64,000 nt of DNA from an uncultured Acidobacteriaceae bacterium (GCA_963785265.1 CAWAUN010000010.1:25524-89523), one strand, 5' to 3'. Counted from the first letter of the stretch, positions 42,716 through 61,277 are shown. Numbers and translations are program-made. The notes: a model not told the origin generated them from the sequence alone.

Positions 42716-43474
42716 TCAGATGCCCGCATACCACGCGTAGCCACCATCAGGGTTAGCACCGCCCAGACCCTTGCCGAACGGTTTGAGGTTGTCCGTCAGA
42801 GTCATACGATTGATATATTTCACGTTCTTATAACCGAGCTGCCGCGGGACTCGCACACGGACGGGGCCCCCGAACGGCACGGGGAGTTCGTTTCCGTTCA
42901 TGCGGTGGGCGAGCAGCGTTTGCGGGTGCAACGCGTCCGCCATGTCGATGCTCTCCCACCAGTCAGGTTGGATCGAGCGGTATACAACGTAACGCACCTG
43001 GGGCAGCGCGCCCACACGGTCCAGGATGTAAGAGAGCGGCACCCCGGTCCATTCGGCGATGTAAGTCCATCCTTCTTCACAGCCGATCATGGTGATCTGC
43101 GTAGTGGTAGGGAAACTCCTGATCTCTGCCAGCGAAAACGAGGCCGGCCGCGCCGCCAACCCGTCCACAGTCACTCGCCAGTCCACGAAACTGGCGGCCT
43201 GGAGTCGTTTGAATTCATCGCCCAACGGATCGACTTCATTGGCGAACGGGTTCTGCGAAACCTCCGTGCGGGAAAATTCACGTGCCATGGAATCGCGGGT
43301 CAAAAGTCGCTGTGCCGCGTAGGTCAGCGTTTCTCCCGGGCCGTAGAGTCCTCCCGCGTCCGGCGGGATGAGCCCATGATGCTGCGCGACTTTGGCAGCG
43401 ACGGCAATCGCCGATGCACCGGCCGCCACACTCAGCCCCGTGGTGATGAGTTTGCGTCGAGAGATATTGCTCAT
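42716..43474 (-). CDS. Molybdopterin-dependent oxidoreductase, sulfite-oxidase fold (YedY/MsrP-like), Tat-exported
   Basis: Tat signal SRRKLITTGLSVAAGASAIAVAA. ..CEEGWTYIAEWTGVPL.. and ..PVRVRVPRQLGYKNVKYI.. match the family. Confidence 0.78.
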   Translation of the reverse strand: MSNISRRKLITTGLSVAAGASAIAVAAKVAQHHGLIPPDAGGLYGPGETLTYAAQRLLTRDSMAREFSRTEVSQNPFANEVDPLGDEFKRLQAASFVDWRVTVDGLAARPASFSLAEIRSFPTTTQITMIGCEEGWTYIAEWTGVPLSYILDRVGALPQVRYVVYRSIQPDWWESIDMADALHPQTLLAHRMNGNELPVPFGGPVRVRVPRQLGYKNVKYINRMTLTDNLKPFGKGLGGANPDGGYAWYAGI

Positions 43475-43478
43475 AACT

Positions 43479-44264
43479 TCACTCCGTCGGTGGGGTAGAG
43501 CGGCCGGTGATCATGGCGCGCATACGATTTCGAAATCCCGCAACAAAGACCATCAGCACGTGAATCAACAGGAATAGCACCAGGAATATCGTCACCAGGA
43601 AGTGCAGGCTGCGCGCCGTCTGCTGCCCTCCCAAGAGCCGAACGGCTAGAGGGAATTCCGACGTGAATCCGAACGACATGGCCAGCCCCGTCCAGATCAT
43701 CAAGGGGAACAACACGAAGATCACGAGCAGGTACGCCAGGCGCTGCAGCACATTATACGACCACTCTTCTTCTTTTTCCGGCCGCTCAAAGCGCAAATGT
43801 CGAACCAGCGAACCGCCCAGCTCCTTGATGGAAAGCTCTGAAGCCGCGGGAAACAGATTGCGCCGGAAATGCCCCGCGAAGAAGCCGAACAGCACGTAGA
43901 ACAAACCCGCCCCGACCGCAAGCCATGCCGCCTGAAAATGAAGATAGCGGCTCCAGCCGTTCTGATCAGGGAGCACGTACCCATAGCCGGTGGGGACGGT
44001 ATCCCTGGAGGATGGCAGGTGCAGATTGAGCCACGGGCGCATGTTTACGTTGCCGGTCTCACCCCAGTAAAACCGCGGATGCGAAAGCACGATCTCGCCT
44101 CCGCTGACCAGCAGCGCGAGAAACGCGACTGTGGTAATCCAATGGGTCACGCGCACGAGCGCTGAGTGGCGCTTCCCGTAAGCGGCGGGCACTGCAGAAC
44201 CAAGCTTGGCCGAAGAAGACAATTGGCGGGCACCGCGATCAGCGATCGGCAGACTCGCATTCAT
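43479..44264 (-). CDS. Membrane b-type cytochrome (cytochrome b561 / Ni-Fe-hydrogenase cytochrome-b family) partner of the Mo enzyme
   Basis: ATG 44264 (MNASLPI). RVTHWITTVAFLALLVSG and further TM helices with conserved His residues. 4-nt gap to the Mo-enzyme gene. Confidence 0.75.
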   Translation of the reverse strand: MNASLPIADRGARQLSSSAKLGSAVPAAYGKRHSALVRVTHWITTVAFLALLVSGGEIVLSHPRFYWGETGNVNMRPWLNLHLPSSRDTVPTGYGYVLPDQNGWSRYLHFQAAWLAVGAGLFYVLFGFFAGHFRRNLFPAASELSIKELGGSLVRHLRFERPEKEEEWSYNVLQRLAYLLVIFVLFPLMIWTGLAMSFGFTSEFPLAVRLLGGQQTARSLHFLVTIFLVLFLLIHVLMVFVAGFRNRMRAMITGRSTPPTE

Positions 44265-44410
44265 AAGGTAGGCCCCATCCCCGATGCTCCGGATTCTACA
44301 GCAAGCGCACAATTAGCGCCGCCGTGGAAGGCGCCAGTACCGTGCTCCACAGCCAGCAGGACGGAGAATCGATATTCGCTCGTCTACCTATAACGGTCTA
44401 ACCGGCGCCG

Positions 44411-44527: not shown

Positions 44528-44629
44528 GTCGTCTTGCTTGACGTTAGTTTCTATTTTGTTATAGTTACCCTCACATTTTCGTGAATGTCGTAAGAGGGCT
44601 TTCCCTAGATCGATTGCAGGAGGAAAAGG

Positions 44630-45286
44630 ATGACGCCTGGCGCGCTTGCGGCACGGAGTATGACCGCAGAGGCTGTGGCCGCGCAGCCTGAAGTCGGACT
44701 TCGGGAGCGGAAGAAAGCCCGCTTGCGGCAGCAAATCATCGACACCTCGATAAGGCTGTTCCGCAAGCACGGATACGAGGCCACACGGATCGATGATATC
44801 GTCCATGTGCTCGAGATCAGCCAACCCACTTTTTTTCGCTACTTTCCAAGCAAGGACGCGGTTCTGCGCGAGGTGGGAGAGCGGGGGTATGCCTGTATCT
44901 GCGAGAAAATGCATTCCGAGCTTTCAGGCAATGCGCGGACAGACCAGCGTTTACGGCGGCTGTACATAACCATGGCACGAGAAGTGGAAGGCGATCGGAA
45001 ACTTTGGCAAGCAGTTGTGCTGTCGGGCGCCATGGATCCGGTGCGATCCTCGGAACTGCGGGGGCACGAGGAGGCCGCCGTCAGCCTGCTGCGGGAAATT
45101 TTAACGCAGGGGCAGAAGCGGGGAGAAGTGACGCGCGCGTTTCCGGTGGTGCACCTGGCCGAGTTCATGGAAGGGCTCTACAACACGGTGGTGCGGCAGT
45201 GGGCGGTGGATCTCACGGGGCCGCACAAACTCACGGACCGGGTGCGGAGCGCGATCGAGTTTTTCTTGTGTGGCATTCGTCCGTAA
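44630..45286 (+). CDS. TetR/AcrR family transcriptional regulator
   Basis: N-terminal HTH: RQQIIDTSIRLFRKHGYEATRIDDIVHVLEISQPTFFRYFPSKDAVL. Confidence 0.9.
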   Translation: MTPGALAARSMTAEAVAAQPEVGLRERKKARLRQQIIDTSIRLFRKHGYEATRIDDIVHVLEISQPTFFRYFPSKDAVLREVGERGYACICEKMHSELSGNARTDQRLRRLYITMAREVEGDRKLWQAVVLSGAMDPVRSSELRGHEEAAVSLLREILTQGQKRGEVTRAFPVVHLAEFMEGLYNTVVRQWAVDLTGPHKLTDRVRSAIEFFLCGIRP

Positions 45287-45343
45287 AGTCTTTCGACAAA
45301 GTGCCAGCGCTCTTTTAGTGATGGAGTTTAGAGGAGTAACGGG

Positions 45344-46366
45344 ATGAGAGCGGCCGTCCTGCACGAATTCAAGGCGCCATTATCGCTGGAGGATGTGCCT
45401 CGTCCAGCGATTGCGGCGGACGAAGTCTTGATCGAGGTTGAAGTCTGCGGTGTGTGCCATTCCGATCTGCACGTGGCCGACGGCGATTGGACGCAGTTGG
45501 CCGGCATCGTGAAAAAACCGCTGATCCTCGGACACGAGATCGTAGGACGTGTGGTGGAGCGAGGCGCGGGAGTCGAGAACGTCCAGACGGGGGACCGGGT
45601 CGGCGTGCCGTGGATACATTGGACATGCGGGAAATGCGAGTTTTGCCGCGAAGGCAACGAGAATCTGTGCGTACAGCAGCGCATCACGGGCGTTATGGTG
45701 GACGGAGGATATGCGGAATTTGCCAAAGCTCCCGCCAGCCACGTGGTCAATATTCCCGAACAACTTCCCTCCGAGCAGGCGGCGCCACTACTCTGTGCCG
45801 GGGTCACGGTTCATCGCGCGCTCAAACAAGCCCACATTCGCGCCGGCCAGCGGTTAGCGGTTTTCGGCGTGGGTGGACTCGGACACATCGCCATCCAGAT
45901 TGCCCTGGCAGCGGGAGCGGAAGTCACCGCAATCGATATTTCGGAGGAAAAGCTCGCGCTGGCGACTGCGCTGGGAGCGATTCGAACCCTGAACGCCGCA
46001 ACCGGCAACGTGATAAAAGAATTGCGACGCTCCGGCGGCGCGCATGTTGCGCTGGTCACGTCAGCAGCCAAATCCGCATACGACATGGCGTTCTATTGTG
46101 TGCGGCCGACGGGAACGCTGCTCGTGGTGGGATTGCCCGCCAAGGATATTTCGTTTCCACCGATTCTGATGGCAGCCGGCGAAATTCAAATTAAAGCTTC
46201 CGCGGTGGGCACGCGCGAAGATCTGCGCGAGGTGTTGGCGATGGGTGCAGCCGGGAGTGTCCGTTGCCAGGTGACCACGCGTCCACTCATAGAGGTCCAG
46301 GAGGTTCTGGGGCAACTGAGTCGCGGCGAAGTCTCGGGCCGCATCGCGCTTCGCTTGCGCGGGTAG
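45344..46366 (+). CDS. Zinc-dependent medium-chain alcohol dehydrogenase
   Basis: GVCHSDLH, GHEIVGRV, CGKCEFC structural-zinc loop, GVGGLGH cofactor motif. Confidence 0.9.
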   Translation: MRAAVLHEFKAPLSLEDVPRPAIAADEVLIEVEVCGVCHSDLHVADGDWTQLAGIVKKPLILGHEIVGRVVERGAGVENVQTGDRVGVPWIHWTCGKCEFCREGNENLCVQQRITGVMVDGGYAEFAKAPASHVVNIPEQLPSEQAAPLLCAGVTVHRALKQAHIRAGQRLAVFGVGGLGHIAIQIALAAGAEVTAIDISEEKLALATALGAIRTLNAATGNVIKELRRSGGAHVALVTSAAKSAYDMAFYCVRPTGTLLVVGLPAKDISFPPILMAAGEIQIKASAVGTREDLREVLAMGAAGSVRCQVTTRPLIEVQEVLGQLSRGEVSGRIALRLRG

Positions 46367-46490
46367 TACCCCCACGGGGTCCGCACGGACTAACAGTAGG
46401 TCTCGATGAGTGTATTGAAGTTTGCGACTATAACATGATATGAACTATCACTTTTGCGCAGCCTCGCCCGGCGGAAAGGCCTTTTTCGGA

Positions 46491-47261
46491 GTGAATGTCA
46501 AAAAACTGTTCGATCTAACCGGTCGCGTGGCCATTGTTTCGGGCGGCTCCATGGGACTGGGACGGCAGATGGCGGAGGGCCTGGCGGAGATGGGCGCGAA
46601 TCTTGTGCTTTGCGCCCGCAACCAGAAGCGCTGCCAGGAGGCGGCGGAGGCCTTACGCAGCCATGGCGTTCAGACGCTTGCCTTGGGATGCGATGTCAAA
46701 GACAAAGCGGCAGTTCATCAGGTTGTAGAGGAGACGCTGGCGAAGTTCGGCCGGATCGATATTCTGATCAACAACGCAGGCGTCTCCTGGGGATCTCCCG
46801 TAGAAGACATGACGCTCGAGCAGTGGGACAAAGTTCTCTCCACCAATCTTACCGGCACGTTTCTGTTTTGTCAGGCGGTAGGCAAGACCATGGCTGCGCA
46901 GGCATCGGGCAAGATCATCAACATTGCATCGGTGGCGGGTCTGGGCGGAGCCTCGGCGGAACTACAGGCGATCGGCTACCACGCGAGCAAAGGCGGCGTG
47001 ATCGCGTTCACCAAGGATCTGGCGTGCAAGTGGGCGCCGCACAACATTCAGGTAAATGCGATCGCTCCGGGATGGTTTCCAACGCACATGTCGGGATGGA
47101 TCATCGAGCATCGTAAAGATTCCCTGTTGGCGAAAATTCCGCTGGGCCGCTTCGGGGCCGATCACGATCTGAAAGGCGCGGCGGTGTTTCTGGCATCGGA
47201 AGCTTCCGCATACGTGACAGGGCACGTCCTGGTTGTCGACGGAGGCCAGACGGCCTGGTAG
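46491..47261 (+). CDS. SDR-family oxidoreductase (3-oxoacyl/gluconate-5-dehydrogenase-like)
   Basis: VSGGSMGLG, NNAG, YHASKGG. GTG 46491 preferred; the ORF maximum starts at 46440. Confidence 0.88.
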   Translation: MNVKKLFDLTGRVAIVSGGSMGLGRQMAEGLAEMGANLVLCARNQKRCQEAAEALRSHGVQTLALGCDVKDKAAVHQVVEETLAKFGRIDILINNAGVSWGSPVEDMTLEQWDKVLSTNLTGTFLFCQAVGKTMAAQASGKIINIASVAGLGGASAELQAIGYHASKGGVIAFTKDLACKWAPHNIQVNAIAPGWFPTHMSGWIIEHRKDSLLAKIPLGRFGADHDLKGAAVFLASEASAYVTGHVLVVDGGQTAW

Positions 47262-47275
47262 AGAACGAACTCTTT

Positions 47276-48871
47276 ATGAATATTCCCCTGACGCCGGTGC
47301 GATTTCTTCGGTACTCAATAGAACAATTTCCGCGCAAGACGGCGGTGGTGTGCCAGGATCTGCGGTTTACCTACGCCGAGTTTGGCGATCGTGTGGGGCG
47401 TTTGGCTGGAGCGCTGCGCGCCGCCGGAGTGAAATCTGGTGATCGCGTGGCATTCCTCAGCCTGAACTGCCATCGGCTCCTCGAAGCTTACTTCGGAGTT
47501 CTGGAAGCGGGTTGCGTTCTGCTTCCTCTCAATATTCGCCTGGCCGCGCCCGAACTGGCCTACATTCTGAACGACTCCGGAACGACGGTGCTGTTCCTGG
47601 AACAAGAGTTTGTCGGTCTTGTAGATTCGTTCCGGCGCGACCTGCGCACGGTGCACTCGTTCCATCAACTCGATGGAACGCCGCAAGCGCCATGGCTTTC
47701 CGCTGCAACCTACGAACAGATGCTCGCCTCCGCCACTCCCTACCGCGGAGACCTAATGGAGTTTGACGAGAACTCAGTGGCGGAAATGTTTTACACGAGC
47801 GGAACCAGCGCCAGTCCGAAGGGCGTGATGCTCACACATCGGAACGTGTACCTGCACGCCATGAGCATCGCTTTGTACCACCACACGAAGTATGAGGACG
47901 TGCTAATGCACACGATCCCTTTGTTTCACGCTAACGGCTGGGGAGCGGCTCACACGATCACGTTCATGGGCGGAACTCATGTCATGCTTCCGCGTTTTGT
48001 GCCCGAGGAAGTCTTCCGTCTGGTGGAGCGGGAACGGGTGCGCGCGCTAACCCTGGTGCCGATTATGGCCACTGTGCTGGTGAACTCGCCGGCGCGCTCC
48101 AAATACGACTTGAGCAGCGTGCAGTGGTGCGTAATTGGGGGCGCGGCTTCTTCCCCGGCCTTGATCCGTGACGTCGAGCAGACGTTGGGATTTAAATGCT
48201 ATTCGGGGTACGGGCTCACGGAAACTGCGCCGTCACTGGCGAACGCCGAACTGAAACCGGATATGCAATGCACCGATGAAGAGCGTTACGCGCTGCAGTC
48301 CATGACGGGCTATGCGTTTCCAGGATGTGAACTGCGGGTGGTCGACGCCACAGACAACGACGTGCCTCGCGACGGTGCAACGATGGGAGAAATCATTGCC
48401 CGGAGTGACGGCGTGATGGCCGGTTACTGGCAACAGCCGGAAGCCACGGCCGAGGCTATGCGAGGCGGATGGTTTCACACAGGAGACATGGCAGTCATCG
48501 AGGAGAACGGATACATCCGGATCGTGGATCGCAAGAAAGACATCATCGTGAGCGGTGGGGAAAACATTTCGTCACTCGACGTTGAAAAAGTGCTCTTGGC
48601 GCATCCCGATGTTTATGAAGCCGCGGTGATCCCAGTGGTCGACAAGAAATGGGGTGAGGTGCCGAAAGCGGTGGTGGTGGTGAAGCCGGGATCGAAGCTG
48701 GGTGAAGTGGAATTGATTGAGTTCTGCCGCGCCCGCCTGGCTCACTACAAGTGTCCGCAATCGATTGAGTTCTGCGAGAGCTTGCCCAAGACTGCGACGG
48801 GCAAAGTTTTGAAAAGAGAACTACGCAAGAAGGATGCGGGTGGGTCGGTAACGCTGCGTTCGGGTGCTTGA
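47276..48871 (+). CDS. Acyl-CoA synthetase / AMP-dependent ligase
   Basis: AMP-binding motif YTSGTSASPKG, YGLTE, GWFHTGD, and C-terminal ..LPKTATGKVLKRELR. Confidence 0.9.
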   Translation: MNIPLTPVRFLRYSIEQFPRKTAVVCQDLRFTYAEFGDRVGRLAGALRAAGVKSGDRVAFLSLNCHRLLEAYFGVLEAGCVLLPLNIRLAAPELAYILNDSGTTVLFLEQEFVGLVDSFRRDLRTVHSFHQLDGTPQAPWLSAATYEQMLASATPYRGDLMEFDENSVAEMFYTSGTSASPKGVMLTHRNVYLHAMSIALYHHTKYEDVLMHTIPLFHANGWGAAHTITFMGGTHVMLPRFVPEEVFRLVERERVRALTLVPIMATVLVNSPARSKYDLSSVQWCVIGGAASSPALIRDVEQTLGFKCYSGYGLTETAPSLANAELKPDMQCTDEERYALQSMTGYAFPGCELRVVDATDNDVPRDGATMGEIIARSDGVMAGYWQQPEATAEAMRGGWFHTGDMAVIEENGYIRIVDRKKDIIVSGGENISSLDVEKVLLAHPDVYEAAVIPVVDKKWGEVPKAVVVVKPGSKLGEVELIEFCRARLAHYKCPQSIEFCESLPKTATGKVLKRELRKKDAGGSVTLRSGA

Positions 48872-48974
48872 GCGAACAGTGATGAGCCGAACCATGCGGA
48901 TTTAGCGAGTTTTGCGGGAGCGCACGAATGAGCAACCTGGCGGCCGCGCAGGGTCTGGAACTGTTGGGGACACC

Positions 48975-49712
48975 ATGAGCCACATTACTCTGGTACGCCA
49001 TGGGCAAGCATCTTTTCTGGAGCGTGACTATGACAAACTCTGCGCCAACGGCGAGGCCCAATCCAGGTTGCTGGGGGAGCATTGGGCGCGGCGCGGCGTG
49101 GTGCTTAGCGGAGTCTACTCGGGACCGCGTGTCCGGCAACTGGAGACCTCCCGCATCGTGGCCGAAGCCTATCGCCGCGCCGGTATTGATTTCCCAGAGA
49201 CGGTGGTTATGAGCGAATTCGACGAATATCAAGCCGAGGCGGTGCTGCGGGAATGCCTTCCGCAACTGCTGCAGGGCAATGGCGGGATCAGGGAATTGCA
49301 CCGCGCGTATGAGGAGTCGAGCGAGGTCGCGGGCGCTGCGCAAAGCGTTGCCCGGCGCACGACGTTTCAGAGGCTGTTTGAGGCGGTGATTGGCAAGTGG
49401 GTGGCAGGGGAAGTTACTGCGGACGGCATTGAATCCTGGCACAAGTTCTGTTCACGGGTGGAGCGGGGGCTCGCGCAAGTTGTGCGCGACACGCCTCCGG
49501 CAGCGAGTGCGGTGGTCTTCACATCGGCGGGGCCGATTGGCGCGGCAATGCGCCGGGTTTTGCATTTGTCGGCCGAGGACACTCTGCAACTGACCTGGAT
49601 GTCGCGCAACGCTTCGTTCAGCAGTTTTCTGGCTTCAGGCGAACGATTCACGTTGAGCACTTTCAATGCGCACCCACACCTCGACGGTGACGGGTTGCTG
49701 ACGTATCGATAG
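48975..49712 (+). CDS. Histidine phosphatase (phosphoglycerate-mutase-like) family protein
   Basis: ATG 48975. ITLVRHGQASF is the RHG catalytic motif. Confidence 0.8.
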   Translation: MSHITLVRHGQASFLERDYDKLCANGEAQSRLLGEHWARRGVVLSGVYSGPRVRQLETSRIVAEAYRRAGIDFPETVVMSEFDEYQAEAVLRECLPQLLQGNGGIRELHRAYEESSEVAGAAQSVARRTTFQRLFEAVIGKWVAGEVTADGIESWHKFCSRVERGLAQVVRDTPPAASAVVFTSAGPIGAAMRRVLHLSAEDTLQLTWMSRNASFSSFLASGERFTLSTFNAHPHLDGDGLLTYR

Positions 49713-49725
49713 CGGAGCTGCGAAT

Positions 49726-50790
49726 ATGGTGGCGCTTTGCGATCAAGCCGGAACGGTGAGAGCGGGCGAGGAACTCGATCTCGCGCGGCTCCGGCCGTTT
49801 CTGCAGCGGCATTTCGGCGACAGCGGAGCGCTTTCGGTCGAACAATTTCCTAGCGGCCACTCTAATCTGACGTATCTGGTGCGACTGGGTGCCAGAGAAT
49901 TCGTGTTGCGGCGTCCGCCTTTTGGCAGCAAGGTTCGGTCCGCGCATGACATGTCGCGTGAGTATCGCGTACTGTCGAAGTTACACGCCGCCTATCCCCT
50001 CGCGCCGAAGGCGCTTCTCTTTTGCGACGACCTGTCGATTCTCGATGCGCCTTTCTACCTGATGGAGCCGATTCGCGGAATGATCTTGCGTCGCGATCCT
50101 CCGTTGGGCATGCCTTTTCCAGCGGAGACGGCGCGGCGATTGAGTGAAGCCTTTCTCGATAATCTCGCACGCCTGCACGGCCTCGATTACGCCGCCGTTG
50201 GCTTAGGTGATCTGGGTAAACCGCAAGGTTATCTCGAACGCCAAGTCAAGGGATGGATCGAGCGCTATCACAACTCGAAAACGCACGACCTGCCTGAAGT
50301 GGAACGCATTTCAATATGGCTTACGCAACGAATGCCCGGCAGCCAGGAAACTGCGCTGATCCACAACGACTACAAGTACGACAATATCGTGCTCGATCCC
50401 AGCGATCCGACAAAGATCGTTGGCGTTCTGGATTGGGAGATGTGCACGCTGGGAGACCCACTGACGGACCTGGGAACGGCGCTCGCGTACTGGGCCGATC
50501 CGGAGGATCCGGAAGACTTCAAGGAAATTCGCAGCGCGCCCACTACACTACCGGGCACGCTGACGCGGGGGCAGTTGGTAGAGCGCTATGCGACCGCGAC
50601 CGGCCGCGATCCTGTCAACATGGTGTTCTATCTGACGTTCGCTCGCTTCAAGGTTGCCGTCATCATCCAGCAGATTTATTTCCGGTACGCGCAAGGTTTA
50701 ACGCAGGACGCACGCTTCGCGGCACTGCCGACGAGGATCCACAGTTTGCTGCGCGCTTCATGGGGTTGCGCGCGGAGCGGAACGATATGA
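49726..50790 (+). CDS. APH-fold phosphotransferase (LvaA / ACAD10-11 kinase-domain-like)
   Basis: Catalytic loop LIHNDYKYDNIVL, then VLDWEMCTLGDP. 13 nt after the phosphatase gene. Confidence 0.85.
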   Translation: MVALCDQAGTVRAGEELDLARLRPFLQRHFGDSGALSVEQFPSGHSNLTYLVRLGAREFVLRRPPFGSKVRSAHDMSREYRVLSKLHAAYPLAPKALLFCDDLSILDAPFYLMEPIRGMILRRDPPLGMPFPAETARRLSEAFLDNLARLHGLDYAAVGLGDLGKPQGYLERQVKGWIERYHNSKTHDLPEVERISIWLTQRMPGSQETALIHNDYKYDNIVLDPSDPTKIVGVLDWEMCTLGDPLTDLGTALAYWADPEDPEDFKEIRSAPTTLPGTLTRGQLVERYATATGRDPVNMVFYLTFARFKVAVIIQQIYFRYAQGLTQDARFAALPTRIHSLLRASWGCARSGTI

Positions 50791-51059
50791 GTGAGCATTG
50801 TCTGCAAGCCCGGCCGCAAGCCTCACTGCGGATAGCAGCGGATCAGCCACTGGGCAACGCAACAGAGTTTGCTCGAAGACTCAGTCTCGACATGGACGTG
50901 GAACGTGGCATCCACAAATTCGGGAGACTGTTTCGCCGAAGCCAGGGTGACTCGACCGCGAACCTTCGAACCGGCGGTCGCGGGGAATTCGCGACCTTCC
51001 GACTCTTTCAAAGAATTCAGATTCTCAATCTCAAAAGGTGGCATAGGAGTTTTCCATGA
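50787..51059 (+). CDS. Candidate small ORF (90 codons), ATGA-coupled at both ends
   Basis: ATG 50787 overlaps the kinase stop (aTATGA), and its TGA (51057-51059) overlaps the ACAD start codon (cATGAc). The ORF track shows it only as the tail of the 247-aa alternative-frame ORF 50316..51059. No recognisable motif; Arg-rich. Confidence 0.4.
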   Translation: MSEHCLQARPQASLRIAADQPLGNATEFARRLSLDMDVERGIHKFGRLFRRSQGDSTANLRTGGRGEFATFRLFQRIQILNLKRWHRSFP

Positions 51060-52822
51060 CGACATTAGCAGACATTTCGCGCAAAGCGGCAAAGGGAACC
51101 GGATTTCTGATCAATGACTCGGAACCCCAGGACATTTTCACGCCGGAGGATCTGACGGAGGAGCATCTTGCCATCGGCCACATGGTGGATGAATTCTGGA
51201 CTAATGAAGTAGAGCCGAATTTGCCGGCGATCCGGGCAAAGGAACCGGGGCTAGCCCTGCGTGTGTTACGCAAATCGGTGGATCTGGGCCTGACCGCGAT
51301 GACGATCCCGGAGGAGTACGGCGGCATGGCCATGGATCTGCCGTCGCTGATGGTGACCTCCGAGCGTTTGGGCCGCGACGGTTCTTACGGGGGCTGGCAC
51401 TCGGCGCATACCGGCATCGGCACACTGCCGCTTGTCTATTTTGGAAATGATCAGCAAAAAAGAAAATATCTGCCCAAGCTGGCGAAAGTTGAGATGCTGG
51501 CCGCCTACGCGCTCACCGAGCCTCTGGCGGGATCGGATGCGCTGGCGGCGCGAACGCGCGCTGATCTCGCGCCCGATGGAAAACACTACATGTTGAACGG
51601 ACAGAAAATGTGGATCACCAACGGCGGCGCGGCCGATCTGTTCACGGTGTTTGCCAAAGTTGGAGGAGAAAAGTTCACTGCATTTCTGGTCGAACGAAAT
51701 TTTCCCGGTGTGAGCAGCGGGGCGGAAGAACACAAGATGGGAATTACAGGAAGCTCCACCACCGCCGTGTATCTCGACAACGTACCGGTGCCAGTGGAAA
51801 ACGTGTTGGGCGAAATCGGGCGCGGGCACGTGATCGCATTCAACATCCTGAACATCGGACGGTTGAAACTGGGTCCGGCCAGCGTCGGGGCAGCGAAAAA
51901 CGTACTTGCAATTTGCCTGAAGTATGCCAAGCAGCGTAAGGCATTCGGCTCGGCGATTGCCGAGTTCGGCGCGATTCAACACAAGCTGGCGGAAATGGCA
52001 ATCCGCATTTTCGCGGCGGAGTCGATGACCTGGCGCGTGGTCGGACTGATTGAGAATCAAATGCACGACGCGGGTTCGTCTTCGGCTGATAGTTCCCAAG
52101 AGCTGAAGGCTATTGAGGAGTTTGCCGCCGAGTGCTCGATGGTCAAGGTCTACGCTTCAGAAATGCTGGACTATGTGGTCGATGAAGGAGTTCAGATTCA
52201 CGGAGGCTATGGATATCACCAGGACTATACGGTTGAACGCGCCTATCGCGATTCACGCATAAACCGGCTATTTGAGGGGACCAGCGAAATTAACCGGCTG
52301 GTAATCACCGGCATGCCGTTGAAGCGTGCGGCCCGCGGACTTCTGCCTCTGTTCGAAGCCGCCCGCGCTGTGCTGCAGGAGACGGGCGAGTCCACGTCCA
52401 AGTCGACGGACGCGGAGCTCAGCCTCGTCCAGAACGCGAAAAAGATCGTGCTGCTGACGCTGGGCGTGGCGCACAAGAAATATGGCGCGCAACTGGAACA
52501 GCAGCAGGAGATCATCATGAATCTGTCAGACATCATGATGGAAGTGTTTGCCATGGAGTCGGGCCTGCTGCGCAGCCGCAAACTGGCGGCGGGCGGTGGT
52601 GGAGCGAACGCTGCGGATGCCTGCGCCGTGTACTTGCGCGATGCCATCGCGCGCGTCGAACTCTGGTCGAGAACCGTGCTGAGCGCCTGTGCTCAAGGCG
52701 ACGAGCTGCGGCGGAATCTTTCTCGTCTGCGCGGGTATGCGAGTCACGATCCGGTCAACACAATCGCGCTACGGCGCCGGATTGCGGTGCGCTTGCTGGC
52801 GAACGAGCGGTATACGATCTGA
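51056..52822 (+). CDS. Long-form acyl-CoA dehydrogenase (FadE/YusJ-like, ~590 aa)
   Basis: AGGAG lies 6 nt upstream of the start. ALTEPLAGSDA, canonical catalytic-Glu motif RLFEGTSEINR, ~200-aa C-terminal helical extension. Confidence 0.9.
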   Translation: MTTLADISRKAAKGTGFLINDSEPQDIFTPEDLTEEHLAIGHMVDEFWTNEVEPNLPAIRAKEPGLALRVLRKSVDLGLTAMTIPEEYGGMAMDLPSLMVTSERLGRDGSYGGWHSAHTGIGTLPLVYFGNDQQKRKYLPKLAKVEMLAAYALTEPLAGSDALAARTRADLAPDGKHYMLNGQKMWITNGGAADLFTVFAKVGGEKFTAFLVERNFPGVSSGAEEHKMGITGSSTTAVYLDNVPVPVENVLGEIGRGHVIAFNILNIGRLKLGPASVGAAKNVLAICLKYAKQRKAFGSAIAEFGAIQHKLAEMAIRIFAAESMTWRVVGLIENQMHDAGSSSADSSQELKAIEEFAAECSMVKVYASEMLDYVVDEGVQIHGGYGYHQDYTVERAYRDSRINRLFEGTSEINRLVITGMPLKRAARGLLPLFEAARAVLQETGESTSKSTDAELSLVQNAKKIVLLTLGVAHKKYGAQLEQQQEIIMNLSDIMMEVFAMESGLLRSRKLAAGGGGANAADACAVYLRDAIARVELWSRTVLSACAQGDELRRNLSRLRGYASHDPVNTIALRRRIAVRLLANERYTI

Positions 52823-52853
52823 CTCACGGGATCGGCAACGTAAGGGAGGCACC

Positions 52854-53858
52854 ATGGCAATCACCAATCACAAGTTTCTTCTGGCGGCGCGGCCGGTAGG
52901 AATGCCGAAAAATACCGACTGGACCTACGTCGAGGAACCAGTTGCGGAACCGAAGGACGGCGAACTGCTGGTTCACTTGTCGTACATTTCGCTCGATCCG
53001 GCGATGCGCATGTGGATTAACGATGTGCGCTCGTACATGCCGCCGGTGGGCATTGGAGAAGTGATGCGGGCTCTTGGTGTGGGAATCGTTACCGCGTCAC
53101 GCAATCCACACTTCGAGGTGGGCGATCACGTCTCCGGAGTGTTCGGCGTGCAGGAGTACGCGATTACCGATGGGCGGGGAGTGAGAAAGATCGACCCGAG
53201 AATTGCTCCCCTGCCCACATATCTCAGTGTGCTAGGCATGACGGGGATGACCGCTTATTTCGGGCTCCTCGACACGGGGCAACCGAAAGCGGGCGAGACG
53301 GTGGTGGTCTCGGCGGCCGCGGGAGCCGTGGGCTCCGTGGTGGGGCAGATCGCAAAAATCAAGGGCTGCAGAGTTGTCGGCATCGCAGGAGGCGCCGGGA
53401 AGTGCCGCTACGTTGTGCAGGAACTGGGTTTCGACGCAGCCGTTGACTACAAATCTGAAGACGTGAGCCGGTCTCTGCGGAAACACTGCCCGGAAGGCAT
53501 TGACGTCTACTTTGACAACGTGGGTGGCGCGATTCTCGATGCGGCGCTGGCGCAACTCCGAATGCACGCCCGGATTGTGATCTGCGGCGCGATTTCCCAA
53601 TACAACAATACCGGGCCGATCGTGGGACCCAGCAACTACCTGTCGCTGCTATCGAACCGCGCCACCATGAAAGGCATGCTGGTGCTGGACTACGCCGATC
53701 GTTACCCGCAAGCCGGAGCGGAAATGGCGGGATGGATGGCAGCGCGCAAGCTCAAGTCGCGCGAAGATATCGTCGAAGGATTCGCAACCTTTCCTGAAAC
53801 TCTACTCAAGCTTTTCAAGAGCGAGAACACGGGGAAACTGATACTGAAAGTGAAGTAG
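52854..53858 (+). CDS. NADP-dependent medium-chain enone/alkenal reductase (YncB/CurA/PTGR1-like)
   Basis: GGGAGG lies 5 nt before ATG 52854. AAAGAVGSVVGQIAK cofactor motif. The ORF maximum at 52689 overlaps the upstream gene. Confidence 0.88.
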   Translation: MAITNHKFLLAARPVGMPKNTDWTYVEEPVAEPKDGELLVHLSYISLDPAMRMWINDVRSYMPPVGIGEVMRALGVGIVTASRNPHFEVGDHVSGVFGVQEYAITDGRGVRKIDPRIAPLPTYLSVLGMTGMTAYFGLLDTGQPKAGETVVVSAAAGAVGSVVGQIAKIKGCRVVGIAGGAGKCRYVVQELGFDAAVDYKSEDVSRSLRKHCPEGIDVYFDNVGGAILDAALAQLRMHARIVICGAISQYNNTGPIVGPSNYLSLLSNRATMKGMLVLDYADRYPQAGAEMAGWMAARKLKSREDIVEGFATFPETLLKLFKSENTGKLILKVK

Positions 53859-54313: not shown

Positions 54314-57300
54314 ATGGTTTTCGAACCGAGCACTTTGATGGGTCGTCTAGTTACCGCGATGAAACCACTTGCAGGTATTCTGGCGTGCTTCCTGTTCGCA
54401 ACCGTATTGGCGTACACGCAGGGCGTAGGAACGTCGGGAGAGGTCACGGGAACGGTAGTCGACTCTGCCGGCGGCGTTGTGGTTAAAGCAACCATCAACG
54501 TCGTGGATGCGCAGACCGGTCTGAAGCGAACGGCCACCACGAATGACACCGGCCAGTTCCGGGTAACGGGGCTAGCGCCGGCGACCTATGACATCAGTGC
54601 GGAAATGGCGGGTTTTGCCACAGCGATTCGAAAAAGTGTCACCGTGGCCATTGGGCAGACGGTCGTCTCCGATTTCAAGCTGAATCCGTCGCCAGTGGCC
54701 ACAGTGATCGTGGTGACCGACCAGCCGCCGGTGGTGGAAACGGAACGCAGCAGCCAAGCCGATACCATCACGCAACAGTACGTGGCCGACTTGCCCATTG
54801 ATCGCCGCGATTACCTTACGTTTACTTTGCTCGCGCCGGGTGTATCGGACTCCACTCGGCTTGCCGGAGATCAGGATTTCAGAGTCAAGCAAACACCGCA
54901 AAGCGGACTGTCATTCTACGGCAGCAATGGCCGCGGCAACAGTATTACGGTCGACGGTGGCGAGACCTCGGGCGATAGCGGCGGCGTGCGCCTCACCGTA
55001 AGCCAGGACGATGTACAGGAATTTCAAATCAATCGCAGCAATTACGGCGCCGACCTGGGGGCAGCCTCCGGTGCGTCCATCAATATCGTAACCAAGTCCG
55101 GCACCAACAATGTGCATGCCACGCTATATGGTTTTTTCCGCAACGATGCCATGGATGCCCGCGACCCCTTCGCCTTCAGTTCGGCCCTCGCTCCCGACCC
55201 GACTTATTCGAATTTCAATACCACTTCGTCCGGCGAGCCGATCAAGAATTCGCTCAGCCGCCAGCAGTACGGCGGCGCCATTGGCTTCCCCATCCAGAAA
55301 GATAAAACCTTCTTCTTTGCTTCCTTCGAAGGCCTGCGGCAGAACTCACAGAACTCAGTTCCCCTTCTGACGGAAAGTTCGATCTTCGCCGGTCCCTCCG
55401 CGACCGCAACCTCGAACCCTTTTCCGCAGAGTGATCCAAGGTATGCGCAACAAGCGATCGTTACGGCCCTGGCCCAGTCAACAAACCCGAGCGTGCCTTG
55501 CATCAATGGTCTCCCAAATCTGCCAGCGCCGGTTTGCGCTGGTTATCTACAGCTCGCCCTCTCGGTCGCTCCGAACCAGGGTCTGACCATGATTCAGCCA
55601 GGGTTGAATAACTTCCTCATAAGCCAGTTTGAAAACGAGGGTGGAGTGTTTCCCTACGACACGCGGCAATACCTGGCGTCCACCCGCCTCGACCACCGCT
55701 TTGATGCGAACAACGAGATTGCGCTGACCTACAGGTATGGCCACGATCTCGAGGAGTCACCCGATGTGCAGTCGCTGACCGCTTTTTCGGCTGGAAGCGC
55801 CACCCACGACTACGACAATAATTTTCAAGTTGCCTGGTATCACCAGTTGAGTACAACCGCCCAGAACGAGGCGCGCGTGCAGTGGGATTACTACAGCTTT
55901 AACGTGATTCCGAACGAGGCGGCGCAGGCGGGACTCCAGATTCCAGGCTTTATCAACAACCTGGGAACCAACATCTTCCTCCCGAATATCACCATCCTCC
56001 GCCGCTACGAATTCGCGGACAATTTCTCCGTGATCCGCGGCCATCACGCCTTCAAGTTCGGAGCCTACGAACTGATCCGCGGCAATCACACCGAGTCCCA
56101 CACTTTTTTCCCCGGGCGCTGGGTCTTCGGCAACCTTCCCGGAGAAGCGCTCAGCCCGTGCTTCGCTCCCACGGTCACGAATCCCTGCACTGGAGGATCT
56201 ACTCCAGCGGGCGCCAACCTCAACTCGTTGCAAGGCGCTTCGTTGGGCGAACCTGAGGTTTACCAGCAGGGCTTCGGCAATCCGACCTACGGGTATTACG
56301 CGCGGCCGCTGACCGGCCTCTACGCGCAGGATTCCTGGAAGATTACGCCGAATTTCACTTTTAACTACGGTCTCCGCTGGGAATTGGACTCACAATTCGC
56401 GCCTTTAACCACCTACAAGAAGGATTTTGCCCCCCGCGTTTCCTTCGCGTGGGATCCCTTCAAGGATCACAAGACGGTGATTCGCGCGGGATATGGAATC
56501 TTCTACGGACCCGTCGACGCTCAGATTCCCGACGTCGATTTGAGCCTGGGGGTCGTAAACAAGAATCGGTCCGCAGTCGAGAACAGCACGCCCGCCGGCC
56601 AAGTGGCCAACGTCAGCGCAATCTGTGGAGTCTCCCAGTTCGGAGTAATAATCAGCCCTGGCACCGGGACCAGCCCTTGCAACCGCGAAATTTCTATTTA
56701 CGCCGACAGCATCACCGGGGTTCCGCTATTGGGCATAGCCGGCGCGGCAACTATTTTCCAAACGCTCTTTGGGCAGGGATTGATTCAGTGCACCACACCA
56801 ACCGCGGGGAATCAGGCCTGCGTCACACCGACGGCTGTGGCTGGCCCGTTTGCGGGTTCCCAACCGGTTGGCATCGACGTTACCAACACCGGCCCCCTCT
56901 CTCCCTTGCAGGTACTTTTCGTGAATCAGCCCGGCTATCGTCCGCCGATCGCGCAGCAGGCGTCGTTCGGAATTGAACGTGAGCTCGGACCTGGTTTCTC
57001 GATTTCTCTGAGCGGAATCTACACTCATACCCAGAGAATCCCGGTCGCGCTCGATACCAATCTGCTGCCCGCGCCGTTCAGCACGGTGACACTCGCCAAT
57101 GGCAAAACCGTTTCCTATCGCAACTGGAACGGCGGTACGCCGGGTATGCCGGCTCCCGCCGACCCGCTCGGCGGCACGGAATTCCCGGGAGGTCTTTCCC
57201 CATGCGCGAATCCCGCCGCCTGCTTTGTGAATCCGCTGATTGTGCAGAACAACCAATACAGTTCTGAGGCCTATGCGGTTTACGAGGGCGGTATTTTGGA

Positions 57301-57970
57301 AGTCAAGAAGCGCTTCCGTGAGCACTTTACCTTGTTCGGGAATTACACCTATAGCAAAGGTTCTGACACATCGACCGACTACAACACTGACTACGGCCCG
57401 CAAGATCCGACCAACCTCAATTTAGATCGCGCGCTTTCCGAATTCGATCAGCGGCATAAACTCGTGATTGCCGGAGTGCTCGACAGCCCCTGGAGACAGA
57501 GTATTTTGTCGGGCTTCCAGCTAGCTCCGATTTTCGAAGCCCACAGCGGGCATCCTTTTAACCTGCTGGCCGGAGGCGAGGTAAACGGCAACAATCACAT
57601 CACCAATGAGCGGCCCATCGGAGCCCCGCGTGACACCGGTCTCGGCCCCGACTACATCGACTTCGACATGCGCCTGACTTGGCGGCACAGACTTGGCGAG
57701 ACGTCGAATCTGCAATTTACTGCGGAGGGGTTCAACCTCGCGAACCGGACAAACTATGCCAGCGTGAATAACGAAGTGAGCCCGCTTTTCGGCTTTAACC
57801 CAGGCATCCCGGGTATCCCGGGTACGGCGTTCACGACGTTCAACGTGCGTGGGATTCGACCGGGCACAGCCCTCTTGGGTGGAGGAACGGCCTCGCCCAG
57901 CACACCCCTGGCCTTCACCTCTGCCTTCCCCAAGCGCCAGATCCAACTCGGCGTGCGCTTCAGCTTCTGA
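54314..57970 (+). CDS. TonB-dependent outer-membrane receptor with N-terminal carboxypeptidase-regulatory-like domain
   Basis: GAGGTGGGG precedes ATG 54314 (alternative start 54359). Signal-like ILACFLFATVLAYTQG. GTVVDSAGGVV..A.I.V.DAQTG..RTATTNDTGQFRV.GLAPATY. Plug and barrel regions; C-terminal ..QLGVRFSF ends in Phe. Confidence 0.88.
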   Translation: MVFEPSTLMGRLVTAMKPLAGILACFLFATVLAYTQGVGTSGEVTGTVVDSAGGVVVKATINVVDAQTGLKRTATTNDTGQFRVTGLAPATYDISAEMAGFATAIRKSVTVAIGQTVVSDFKLNPSPVATVIVVTDQPPVVETERSSQADTITQQYVADLPIDRRDYLTFTLLAPGVSDSTRLAGDQDFRVKQTPQSGLSFYGSNGRGNSITVDGGETSGDSGGVRLTVSQDDVQEFQINRSNYGADLGAASGASINIVTKSGTNNVHATLYGFFRNDAMDARDPFAFSSALAPDPTYSNFNTTSSGEPIKNSLSRQQYGGAIGFPIQKDKTFFFASFEGLRQNSQNSVPLLTESSIFAGPSATATSNPFPQSDPRYAQQAIVTALAQSTNPSVPCINGLPNLPAPVCAGYLQLALSVAPNQGLTMIQPGLNNFLISQFENEGGVFPYDTRQYLASTRLDHRFDANNEIALTYRYGHDLEESPDVQSLTAFSAGSATHDYDNNFQVAWYHQLSTTAQNEARVQWDYYSFNVIPNEAAQAGLQIPGFINNLGTNIFLPNITILRRYEFADNFSVIRGHHAFKFGAYELIRGNHTESHTFFPGRWVFGNLPGEALSPCFAPTVTNPCTGGSTPAGANLNSLQGASLGEPEVYQQGFGNPTYGYYARPLTGLYAQDSWKITPNFTFNYGLRWELDSQFAPLTTYKKDFAPRVSFAWDPFKDHKTVIRAGYGIFYGPVDAQIPDVDLSLGVVNKNRSAVENSTPAGQVANVSAICGVSQFGVIISPGTGTSPCNREISIYADSITGVPLLGIAGAATIFQTLFGQGLIQCTTPTAGNQACVTPTAVAGPFAGSQPVGIDVTNTGPLSPLQVLFVNQPGYRPPIAQQASFGIERELGPGFSISLSGIYTHTQRIPVALDTNLLPAPFSTVTLANGKTVSYRNWNGGTPGMPAPADPLGGTEFPGGLSPCANPAACFVNPLIVQNNQYSSEAYAVYEGGILEVKKRFREHFTLFGNYTYSKGSDTSTDYNTDYGPQDPTNLNLDRALSEFDQRHKLVIAGVLDSPWRQSILSGFQLAPIFEAHSGHPFNLLAGGEVNGNNHITNERPIGAPRDTGLGPDYIDFDMRLTWRHRLGETSNLQFTAEGFNLANRTNYASVNNEVSPLFGFNPGIPGIPGTAFTTFNVRGIRPGTALLGGGTASPSTPLAFTSAFPKRQIQLGVRFSF

Positions 57971-58060: not shown

Positions 58061-59287
58061 TCAGGCCGAATTTTTAGCTAGGTATTTCCTCAGCTCGAGT
58101 TTGGCAATCAGGGCGCGATGCACTTCATCGGGCCCGTCCGCGATACGCAGAGTGCGGATGGTGGCAAACATTTCGGTCAGAGGGAAATCGGCGGAAACCC
58201 CGGCGCCTCCGTGCATTTGAATTGCCTGGTCGATAATTTCCAAAGCAGTGTTGGGCACCGCCACTTTGATCTGGGAGATTTCACTGCGCGCGCCCCTGGT
58301 GCCAACTTCATCCAGCATCCACGCAGCCTTGAGAGTAAGCAGACGCGCTTGCTCCAACTTGATGCGGGCATTGGCAATGACGTCGGCATTGGCGCCCAGT
58401 TCGGCCAACGGCTTGCCGAAGGCAACTCTTTGCAGCGAACGCCGGCACAAAAGTTCCAGCGCGCGCTCGGCTGCTCCCAGAGTACGCATGCAGTGATGAA
58501 TGCGGCCGGGACCGAGCCGGCCTTGAGCGATTTCGAAACCGCGGCCTGGTCCGGCAATAATGTGGTCCAGCGGTACGCGAACATTAGTGAAACTTACTTC
58601 GCCGTGGCCGAAAGGCGGGTCATACGATCCGAACACGGGCACCATGCGCTCGATCTTGACGCCGGGAGTTTCAATCGGCACCAGTACCATGGAATGGCGC
58701 TGATATTTCGACGCAAAGGGATTGGTAACGCCCATAAAGATGAGCAGCCGGCAGTGAGGATGACCAATTCCCGAACTCCACCACTTCAAGCCGTTCAGGA
58801 CTATGTGATCTCCCTCGATCAACGCCTTGGCCTGGATGTTCGTGGCGTCTGAGGAGGCCACGCCAGGTTCCGTCATGCAGAAGGCGGAACGAATCTCGCC
58901 CGCCAGCAACGGCTTAAGCCACCGCTCTTTCTGTGCCTCCGAACCATACTTCACCAGCACTTCCATGTTGCCAGTGTCGGGAGCATTGCAGTTGAAAACC
59001 TCGGGAGCAATCGAGGAGCGCCCGGTAATCTCCGCCAGGGGCGCATATTCCACGTTGGTGAGGCCCGCGCCGTACTTGCCGTCGGGAAGAAAAAGATTCC
59101 ATAAGCCAGCGGCGCGCGCTTTGGCCTTCAGAGTCTCCATCACCGCGGGCTGTTTCCAGTTGTGCCAGTCGGGAAGATTCTGCAATTGCGCTGCGTACTC
59201 GGGCTCGGCCGGCAAGACGTGCTCTTGCATGAACGCCGCAAGGCGCTGGACATAGCTCTGGGCTTTGGGTGACGGCGAAAAGTCCAT
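58061..59287 (-). CDS. Acyl-CoA dehydrogenase-fold protein of the ACAD10/ACAD11/FadE2-like type
   Basis: 408 aa. [15 protein letters not shown]. Carries [12 protein letters not shown] where classical ACADs have the (Y/F)EGT(S/N)EI catalytic-Glu motif. Confidence 0.85.
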
Positions 59288-61265: not shown

Positions 61266-61277
61266 AAAGATCTCCCT

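Follow-up and report, generated by a model that had tools for sequence, protein, structure and literature searches.

A probable accessory beta-oxidation island for 4-hydroxy and 4-oxo fatty acids in a Terriglobales acidobacterium, with its ACAD10/11-type kinase and eliminating dehydrogenase in separate transcription units

A pathway that converts 4-hydroxyacyl-coenzyme A (CoA) to 2-enoyl-CoA is known in both bacteria and animals. The lvaABCDE operon of Pseudomonas putida is described as encoding a CoA ligase, a short-chain dehydrogenase/reductase (SDR), a kinase of the aminoglycoside phosphotransferase (APH) fold, and an Asp-type acyl-CoA dehydrogenase (ACAD) that removes phosphate (PMC6692424, PMC11342911, and PMC12440821). 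Animal ACAD10 and ACAD11 (8v3u, 8v3v, and 2wbi) join an N-terminal kinase domain to a C-terminal ACAD domain. The nearest biochemical precedent for a split bacterial system, likened here by its description, is the stand-alone kinase and ACAD of Burkholderia pseudomallei reported by Paquay et al., which replaced the ACAD10 domains in vitro and are described as nearer to ACAD10 than LvaA and LvaC are (PMC11342911). Here, we analyze a 64,000-nucleotide (nt) stretch of DNA, the window, from an uncultured Acidobacteriaceae bacterium (GCA_963785265.1 CAWAUN010000010.1:25524-89523), in which a TetR-led operon includes a gene for a kinase of the ACAD10/11 type. We found no paper that treats this acidobacterial island. 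In our reading, to which we assign a probability of roughly 0.7, this region belongs to an accessory beta-oxidation island in a Terriglobales acidobacterium and holds the known bypass from 4-hydroxyacyl-CoA to 2-enoyl-CoA; the island probably serves medium- to long-chain 4-hydroxy and 4-oxo fatty acids. The island is thus a rearranged example of a known pathway. Its distinguishing features are that kinase and eliminating ACAD belong to different transcription units, that it has a beta-oxidation set of its own and three extra reductases, and that its genes have recently been scattered.

Among solved structures in the Protein Data Bank (PDB), the kinase is closest to 9o56 (375 bits), followed by 3dxp (182 bits) and the N-terminal kinase domain of mouse ACAD11 (171 bits; E = 3e-49). 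The next-best matches are an aminoglycoside-phosphotransferase-like protein (36.8 bits), N-acetylhexosamine kinases (24 bits), and a macrolide phosphotransferase (23 bits). The original prediction, made from the sequence of the window, had placed this enzyme in the ACAD10/11 kinase group, and the scores bear it out, with 171 to 375 bits for that group against at most 37 bits for antibiotic or sugar kinases; as far as solved structures go, the protein does not cluster with aminoglycoside or choline kinases. Across 47 aligned kinase homologues, no variation is seen at R62, E79, R172, H213, D215, N220, D236, or W237, and alignment to 9o56 and 8v3v indicates that the HxDxK Asp, the Asn, the DWE metal site, the beta3 Arg, and the alphaC Glu are all kept. 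R172 falls on the RQV-segment Arg, which according to the published ACAD11 model is in contact with CoA (PMC12440821); the residue that this paper calls R86 could not be mapped by number, and R78 of the window's kinase, which adjoins the alphaC Glu, is kept in at least 90% of sequences. The gene is the sole copy in the 5.3-Mb genome, and its product is predicted from these sequence features to be a 4-hydroxyacyl-CoA kinase.

The predicted partner of the kinase lies outside the operon, 7.3 kb from the kinase gene and on the opposite strand, where an ACAD gene stands head to head with a LysR gene. Its product matches 4hr3 (558 bits), mouse ACAD11 (466 bits), and human ACAD11 (456 bits), whereas ordinary ACADs score at most 149 bits against it. 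It is homologous to the C-terminal domain of ACAD10 and ACAD11 and bears the Arg, the HCMR motif, and the catalytic Asp (ADGPDEVH) that are needed for 4-phosphoacyl-CoA turnover, according to the mutagenesis reported in PMC12440821. The gene is the sole one of the LvaC/ACAD10-11 type in the genome and is predicted to encode the phosphate-eliminating enzyme for 4-phosphoacyl-CoA. Compared with the fused animal proteins, then, the window has the same two parts as separate genes.

The original prediction had credited the operon with every lva-type activity, with the caveat that the 588-amino-acid (aa) ACAD encoded inside it might be an ordinary dehydrogenase. The caveat was right. The operon ACAD passes the NCBIfam model for Bacillus FadE, NF058590 (756.5 bits; cut-off, 600), and in its aligned segments NILNIGRLKLGPA and RLFEGTSEIN it carries Glu at the position of the LvaC/ACAD11 Asp. 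The HCMR motif is not present in the alignment of this protein, and EGTSEI stands in place of the DGPDEV of ACAD11. It was consequently rejected as the equivalent of LvaC on the strength of the FadE score, the Glu, and the missing HCMR. The operon alone does not encode the whole pathway, as had been over-read; the pathway is present in this genome but split over separate transcription units. Orthologues of the operon FadE (at least 86% identity) occur in four of the five other kinase carriers of the genus (the copy in genome G007 is cut at a contig end), and a paralogue of 49 to 51% identity occurs in most genomes of the genus. Judging by these identities, the 588-aa FadE is an island-specific second copy.

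Kinase and eliminating ACAD occur together far beyond this genome. A related set of 31 genomes was assembled from this one, 18 others of the genus, and 12 from another family of the order (one member, G028, is unpublished). The kinase is present in 6 of the 31, namely this genome, 5 of the 18 others of the genus, and none of the 12 from the other family, and these 6, with no others, also have the eliminating-ACAD type. An even draw of 121 Acidobacteriota genomes with a completeness of at least 90% gave a similar picture: the kinase was found in 23, and the ACAD type was found in 24, which are all 23 carriers and G070, i.e., 1 of the 98 noncarriers. Among the 23 carriers, the two genes are no more than about 2.1 kb apart in 18, are separated by 7 to 18 kb on one contig in 2 (this genome and G115), and lie on different contigs in 3. 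Moreover, 80 loci from many phyla were gathered with a kinase profile, 52 of them with full flanks, and an ACAD of the eliminating type lies within 4 kb of the kinase in 55 of the 80 (37 of the 52 with full flanks). When 56 kinase-linked ACADs were read, 1 (L042) was frame-broken. Arg and Asp are present in every one of the remaining 55; HCMR is exact in 52 of the 55, and HCVR or HAMR takes its place in 3. The two functions are also fused: 45 of 74 long kinase homologues (at least 621 aa) bear ACAD domains, and both ACAD10/11 motifs are found in 37 of the 74. The other fusion partners in this set are SDRs (9), AMP-binding ligases (2), a thiolase (1), a reductase of the medium-chain dehydrogenase/reductase (MDR) family (1), and a CoA-transferase (1).

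Together, the linkage of kinase and ACAD, the conserved motifs, and the fusions point to an acyl-CoA substrate and to the two-step bypass known from ACAD10/11, LvaA/LvaC, and the Burkholderia pair. The same evidence bears on a plainer explanation, namely, that this is an ordinary operon for fatty acid degradation in which the kinase and a neighboring histidine-phosphatase-like protein are unrelated passengers, the former being, for example, an antibiotic kinase. It is true that the operon ACAD is an ordinary FadE, that the TetR protein is FadR-like, and that the Pfam label for the kinase is just APH. However, the macrolide and aminoglycoside-phosphotransferase-like scores given above fall far below those of the ACAD10/11-type kinases, the order of phosphatase and kinase is kept in all five genus carriers and in locus L013, and the kinase, the phosphatase, and the ACAD10/11-type ACAD have been gained and lost together within the genus. 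We consider the passenger explanation very improbable.

The features of the locus are collected in Table 1.

Table 1. Genes, pseudogene, and control sites of the locus, with positions counted from the first letter of the window
Feature	Position	Strand	Evidence or remark
Promoter-like site TTGACG, 16 nt, TATAGT	44538-44565	+	65 nt upstream of tetR
Conserved block	44542-44579	+	29 invariant positions
TetR-family regulator, FadR-like	44630-45286	+	Pfam TetR_N E 1.5e-13
Zn-dependent alcohol dehydrogenase / aldehyde reductase, AdhP/Ahr-like	45344-46366	+	Pfam ADH_N, ADH_zinc_N
SDR oxidoreductase	46440-47261	+	Pfam adh_short_C2 E 7.6e-63; NCBIfam NF006070 358 bits (cut-off 279)
Acyl-CoA synthetase, fatty-acid-CoA ligase subfamily	47276-48871	+	Pfam AMP-binding, AMP-binding_C; NCBIfam NF004837 555 bits (cut-off 476)
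Divergent histidine-phosphatase-fold protein	48975-49712	+	Pfam His_Phos_1 E 6e-14
ACAD10/ACAD11-type kinase, predicted 4-hydroxyacyl-CoA kinase	49726-50790	+	Pfam APH E 5.5e-51
MaoC-like dehydratase remnant (pseudogene)	50823-51044	-	DNA match to intact gene, contig C5
588-aa ACAD, Bacillus FadE type, VLCAD-like C-terminal extension	51056-52822	+	Pfam Acyl-CoA_dh N, M, 1 + Acyl-CoA-dh_C
NADPH alkenal/one (double-bond) reductase, MDR family	52854-53858	+	Pfam ADH_N_2
TonB-dependent-receptor-like outer-membrane protein	54314-57970	+	Pfam CarboxypepD_reg, OMP_b-brl_4, TonB_dep_Rec_b-barrel
LvaC/ACAD10-11-type ACAD, predicted 4-phosphoacyl-CoA phosphate-eliminating enzyme	58061-59287	-	PDB matches, motifs
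LysR-family regulator, divergent from ACAD gene	59340-60392	+	Pfam HTH_1, LysR_substrate

Of the nine codirectional genes originally proposed for 44630-53858, eight stand by the open reading frame (ORF) list, Pfam, and NCBIfam, among them the CoA ligase and the SDR in the same operon as the kinase; the ninth, a 90-codon ORF, is not a gene. The motifs quoted for these proteins, LVRHGQ, LIHNDYKYDNIVL, and LFEGTSEI, were all found in the translations. For the phosphatase-like gene, the start is placed at ATG 48975, which gives 245 aa, because its homologues span 238 to 258 aa, and for the enone reductase, the most likely start is ATG 52854, which a GGGAGG ribosome-binding site precedes, and not the overlapping GTG 52689. 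The Zn-dependent alcohol dehydrogenase scores 291 bits against the NCBIfam AdhP model and 243 bits against Ahr, each under the model's own cut-off. Along its entire length, the SDR shares 38% identity with the SDR half of P0157, a fusion of kinase and SDR, and is a candidate 4-oxoacyl-CoA reductase with an LvaD-like role. The enone reductase reaches 394 bits with NCBIfam CurA, under the cut-off of 440, and its PDB matches are 4b7c (487 bits), double-bond reductases, and prostaglandin reductase 1 (205 bits). The outer-membrane protein gene that follows may function in uptake; it is found at the same place in L009, L010, L011, and L013 and, up to the contig end, in L008. The arrangement of genes is no assembly artifact: positions 48000-52000 are covered, with no insertion, deletion, or joint, by contigs of four soil-metagenome runs from four studies, each of which may itself be the source sample of the assembly, and the gene order is found again in all five same-genus carriers and in L013.

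The 90-codon ORF, 50787-51059 on the plus strand, has no Pfam or NCBIfam match and is the antisense of a MaoC-like dehydratase remnant. It had suggested a gap of -4 nt after the kinase gene; the true spacing from kinase to FadE is 265 nt. A small LvaB-like partner was also considered here and rejected, the only small ORF being the antisense strand of this pseudogene. The remnant matches a gene on contig C5 in two blocks of 138 nt and 105 nt with 90 to 91% DNA identity, separated by an in-frame gap of 246 columns (82 codons of the core) for which sequence exists only on C5. The C5 paralogue is an intact MaoC-like gene (Pfam MaoC_dehydratas, E = 6e-21), on the opposite strand. The remnant itself has no Pfam match and, by BLASTP, retains both ends of the protein only, at 78 to 84% identity to C5. 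An intact MaoC gene on the minus strand stands exactly at the remnant's place in L008, L009, and L011, three of the five genus relatives, and in L013.

Gene-neighborhood conservation, proposed as a check, holds: the gene order is the same in all five same-genus carriers and L013, reading tetR, alcohol dehydrogenase, SDR, ligase, FadB, phosphatase, kinase, FadE, enone reductase, and outer-membrane protein. To this, L008 and L013 add a thiolase after FadB; the intact MaoC gene of the four loci just named lies between kinase and FadE; and L011 alone has an ACAD gene on the minus strand and then a LysR gene beyond the outer-membrane protein gene, the same ACAD-LysR pairing as in the window. The FadB of the relatives is a 707-aa protein with enoyl-CoA hydratase and 3-hydroxyacyl-CoA dehydrogenase parts. 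The window's genome has no FadB between ligase and phosphatase; its FadB orthologue, 86 to 89% identical to the copy of the relatives, is on C5, tail to tail with the intact MaoC gene. The pair is at L001:2887-5515, and next to it come about 40 nt matching the opening codons of the FadE gene in the window. A thiolase orthologue (90% identical) is on another contig, at C4:70104-71291. In total, the genome's pathway genes are spread over at least four sites. From the sequences, the scatter looks like a duplicated segment that suffered complementary deletions in its two copies, and both deletion junctions are covered unchanged by metagenome contigs from runs that may be the assembly source. The flanks of the island are not syntenic among the carriers, and its borders cannot be set. 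Downstream of the FadB-MaoC pair on C5 (L001:5992-9480) are genes for a NiFe-hydrogenase small-subunit-like protein, a 4Fe-4S protein, and an NrfD-like membrane protein.

Set beside lvaABCDE, the locus has the same chemical logic, from 4-oxo to 4-hydroxy to 4-phospho to enoyl-CoA. The layout differs: no LvaB-like small partner lies beside the kinase, and kinase, eliminating ACAD, SDR, and ligase are not in one operon. The operon is led by TetR, with no sigma-54 PrpR-like regulator such as LvaR, and the eliminating ACAD stands outside it under a LysR gene. Also, the window's kinase is nearer to ACAD10/11 than to LvaA, judged by the identities quoted in PMC11342911, and its module sits inside a complete beta-oxidation island with three reductases beyond the lva set. 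No copy of the Pseudomonas lva genes was found by tblastn among the best 40 of 278 and 60 of 130 plasmid records. Could the locus nevertheless be a levulinate-specific lva operon in another gene order, with short C5 4-oxo or 4-hydroxy acids as substrates? A CoA ligase, an SDR, an APH-fold kinase, and a nearby LvaC-type ACAD are all present, and the missing LvaB has a parallel in Pseudomonas citronellolis LA18T, where a gene of the histidine phosphatase family replaces lvaB beside the kinase in a levulinate-linked cluster and where the authors call for functional analysis (PMC6692424). In that cluster, as described, the LvaC and LvaD homologues adjoin the kinase, the regulator is of the LvaR type, and the kinase is 59% identical to LvaA, all unlike the window. 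LvaA is given as 29% identical to the ACAD10/11 kinase domains, with other bacterial kinases much closer to them (PMC11342911), and the window's kinase scores 171 bits to ACAD11. The island has its own long Bacillus-type FadE, a ligase of the fatty-acid-CoA ligase subfamily, and, in the relatives, FadB and thiolase, and is without LvaB and LvaR. These features favor a route for longer acids over an operon specific for levulinate, which we consider decidedly unlikely. A further cluster for comparison is that of Deinococcus radiodurans (NZ_OV024759.1), annotated in the order SDR, MaoC dehydratase, PaaI thioesterase, hypothetical protein, ACAD, phosphotransferase, and histidine phosphatase. Its ACAD is 58% identical to the window's eliminating ACAD. 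Unlike the locus in the window, this cluster is compact, keeps to one strand, and has no neighboring genes for FadE, CoA ligase, or TetR.

The route that we infer for longer 4-hydroxy and 4-oxo acids would begin with activation of the acid by the CoA ligase. The island FadE, along with the FadB and MaoC hydratase on C5 and the thiolase on C4, would then shorten the chain, the SDR would reduce the 4-oxo group, and the kinase would phosphorylate the 4-hydroxyl. Finally, the LvaC-type ACAD would eliminate the phosphate to give 2-enoyl-CoA, which could go back into beta-oxidation. The Zn-dependent alcohol dehydrogenase and the enone reductase might feed in alkenal, alkenone, or alcohol precursors, an idea drawn by analogy with mammalian 4-hydroxynonenal catabolism as described in PMC12440821. 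The FadR-like TetR protein would repress the operon at a conserved promoter/operator block, LysR would control the eliminating ACAD, and the histidine-phosphatase-like protein would be an optional accessory of the kinase.

Several points weigh against this route. The chain length is taken from family names only (FadE and fatty-acid-CoA ligase). FadB, MaoC, and thiolase are missing from the window, where MaoC is wrecked, and the eliminating ACAD is outside the operon with a regulator of its own; in another carrier, G016, it is on a contig other than that of the kinase. The cluster lacks an aldehyde dehydrogenase gene, a point that makes alkenal feeding less convincing. No RNA run is listed with this DNA. 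Finally, the Caldalkalibacillus thermarum protein that 9o56, the nearest solved relative of the kinase, very probably represents is reported to phosphorylate 1-O-alkylglycerol in vitro and to be stimulated by acetyl-CoA (preprint 10.1101/2025.09.10.675409).

This last observation is the starting point for a different explanation, ether-lipid salvage, in which an acyl-CoA-activated kinase phosphorylates 1-O-alkylglycerols and the phosphatase acts on an alkyl-glycerophosphate, a scheme already put forward for ACAD10 with its kinase and HAD domains. Acidobacteria make ether lipids, and the phosphatase-fold gene next to the kinase parallels the phosphatase and kinase of ACAD10. The closest solved homologue, 9o56, carries just the title "Aminoglycoside phosphotransferase" in the PDB; it is very probably the "ACAD10 kinase domain" of C. 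thermarum, because the residue numbers quoted in the preprint fall exactly on this chain. Residues R61, E78, D214, K216, N219, D234, and E236 of the C. thermarum protein correspond to R62, E79, D215, K217, N220, D236, and E238 in the window. That protein was assayed on 1-O-alkylglycerol, including chimyl alcohol, and not on 4-hydroxyacyl-CoA, and several prokaryotic homologues are reported to have the same activity (preprint 10.1101/2025.09.10.675409). The preprint itself calls the relation of the two activities unclear, however, and nothing in the gene context speaks for ether-lipid salvage. Every neighbor and common fusion partner of the kinase family is an acyl-CoA enzyme, the kinase occurs in 23 of 23 cases with a phosphate-eliminating ACAD type that has no role in such salvage, and the phosphatase is present in only 4 of the 23 phylum carriers. 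We therefore regard ether-lipid salvage as unlikely and retain the 4-hydroxyacyl-CoA bypass.

The phosphatase-like protein, whose gene ends 13 nt ahead of the kinase gene, has no solved relative close in sequence in the PDB (best E = 0.13). Its AlphaFold2 (AF2) model has a predicted local distance difference test (pLDDT) score of 94.1 and a predicted template modeling (pTM) score of 0.91. Foldseek returned 318 matches at E values of 0.001 or less, and all the matches listed have the histidine phosphatase fold, headed by 4ij5 (E = 2.5e-11; target TM-score, 0.72) and PhoE 1h2e. On this model, the protein has the fold of branch 1 of the histidine phosphatase superfamily, with a helical insert at about residues 87 to 172. 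The catalytic set of branch 1 consists of the His of RHG, two Arg residues, an acid, and a second His in an SHG-like motif. R8, H9, R54, and E84 are invariant in 31 aligned sequences, G, A, or V stands where the second (SHG) His would be in all 44 sequences compared, and another His, H235, near the C terminus, is nearly invariant. A parallel drawn in the original prediction, between this protein and the phosphatase-like domain of ACAD10, does not hold in homology: the ACAD10 domain is of the HAD fold (PMC11342911) and is not homologous to this protein. Accounts of the HAD domain conflict, one stating that it restrains the kinase and has negligible phosphatase activity (PMC11342911) and the other that it dephosphorylates an ether-lipid precursor (preprint 10.1101/2025.09.10.675409).

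The phosphatase-like gene is a recurrent partner of the kinase. Of the 80 loci, 43 have it no more than 4 kb from the kinase gene (29 of the 52 with full flanks). Mapped onto the kinase tree, the association takes 10 or more gains or losses to explain, and well-supported branches force 4 of these. Within the genus, it is found in the same six genomes as the kinase, with one weak paralogue (32%) elsewhere. In the phylum draw, where at most 23 candidates per genome were scored and some may have been missed, it was found in 4 of the 121 genomes, all of them kinase carriers. An obligate phosphatase partner was rejected on this count. No kinase-phosphatase fusion was found among the 74 long kinase homologues, nor among the 4 of 150 representatives longer than 450 aa, a search that a fusion of about 600 aa could still escape. 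By its sequence distribution, then, the protein is a specific but optional companion of the kinase and not a core part. A tentative joint reading, which we hold at well under even odds, makes it a dedicated optional third component in place of LvaB and the ACAD10 HAD domain, restraining or proofreading the formation of 4-phosphoacyl-CoA, with mid-chain-oxygenated long-chain fatty acids as the substrates. It may, for example, remove phosphate from the wrong enantiomer or from spilled 4-phospho acids, and it might serve chiefly in systems whose eliminating ACAD gene is not next to that of the kinase; natural substrates may include plant cutin or suberin monomers and lipid peroxidation products. 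If so, a 4-hydroxy or 4-oxo intermediate is where the beta-oxidation of these acids would come to a halt.

Upstream of tetR, the best promoter-like match of the scan (10/12) is the TTGACG-TATAGT site; the scan as a whole found 5 sites against 4.9 expected from shuffles and is not significant alone. The site overlaps a block, CGTTAGT..CT.TTTTGTTATAGTTAC..TCA, that is invariant in seven of seven aligned upstream regions (the window, the five genus relatives, and L013), although the DNA flanking this block does not align among them. Positions 44538-44579 are probably a TetR operator overlapping a promoter. No inverted repeats were found upstream of tetR at a seed of 6. The terminator scan found 12 candidates against 16.9 expected, with none in the intergenic gaps of the operon, and a scan of 42000-64000 against Rfam gave no family at gathering score. 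The TetR protein has weak full-length PDB matches to 3ang/3anp (54 bits; residues 24 to 211), 5gp9, and 3whb (34 bits), the last named "Fatty acid metabolism regulator protein" and the first of which we take to be Thermus FadR. Against the NCBIfam FadR(Bac) model, it gives an E value of 1.8e-10 and 40.9 bits, far under the cut-off of 200. Its repression would be relieved by acyl-CoA.

We propose that a soil acidobacterium has wired the ACAD10/11-Lva bypass for 4-hydroxy acids into a private, regulated beta-oxidation island, whose kinase and eliminating ACAD travel together even when they are not neighbors. The island offers a clean bacterial system in which to address two questions: whether the kinase family, whose substrate is disputed, acts on 4-hydroxyacyl-CoA or on alkylglycerol, and what the phosphatase-like partner does.

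Some observations concern the wider protein families. The kinase-linked ACADs of L013-L092 fall into two groups, one about 50 to 64% identical to the window's eliminating ACAD with R[LIM]ADGPDEVH and one 36 to 45% identical with RIYDG.DEVH; both retain the Arg, the HCMR-type motif, and the Asp. Bacterial fusions (proteins P0391-P0462) have the ACAD before the kinase in 38 cases and the kinase before the ACAD in 2, the reverse of the order in animal ACAD10/11, which suggests that the fusions arose independently. At L015, L017, L019-L021, L074, and L081, two adjacent short ACAD-like genes, 24 to 28% identical to the 588-aa FadE, lie upstream of the phosphatase-kinase pair and may encode a two-subunit ACAD.

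The operon and the LysR gene are flanked by redox genes. At 42716-44312, on the minus strand and divergent from tetR, are a molybdopterin oxidoreductase (Oxidored_molyb) and a cytochrome b561 (Ni_hydr_CYTB), a pair that is MsrPQ/YedYZ-like and that is not beside the island in the five genus relatives. At 60726-63988, also on the minus strand, are genes for a 2Fe-2S/4Fe-4S protein, a 639-aa NuoF-like FMN/NADH subunit with extra ferredoxin domains, and a NuoE-like, thioredoxin-like 2Fe-2S protein, which by sequence look like a soluble NADH-dependent diaphorase module.

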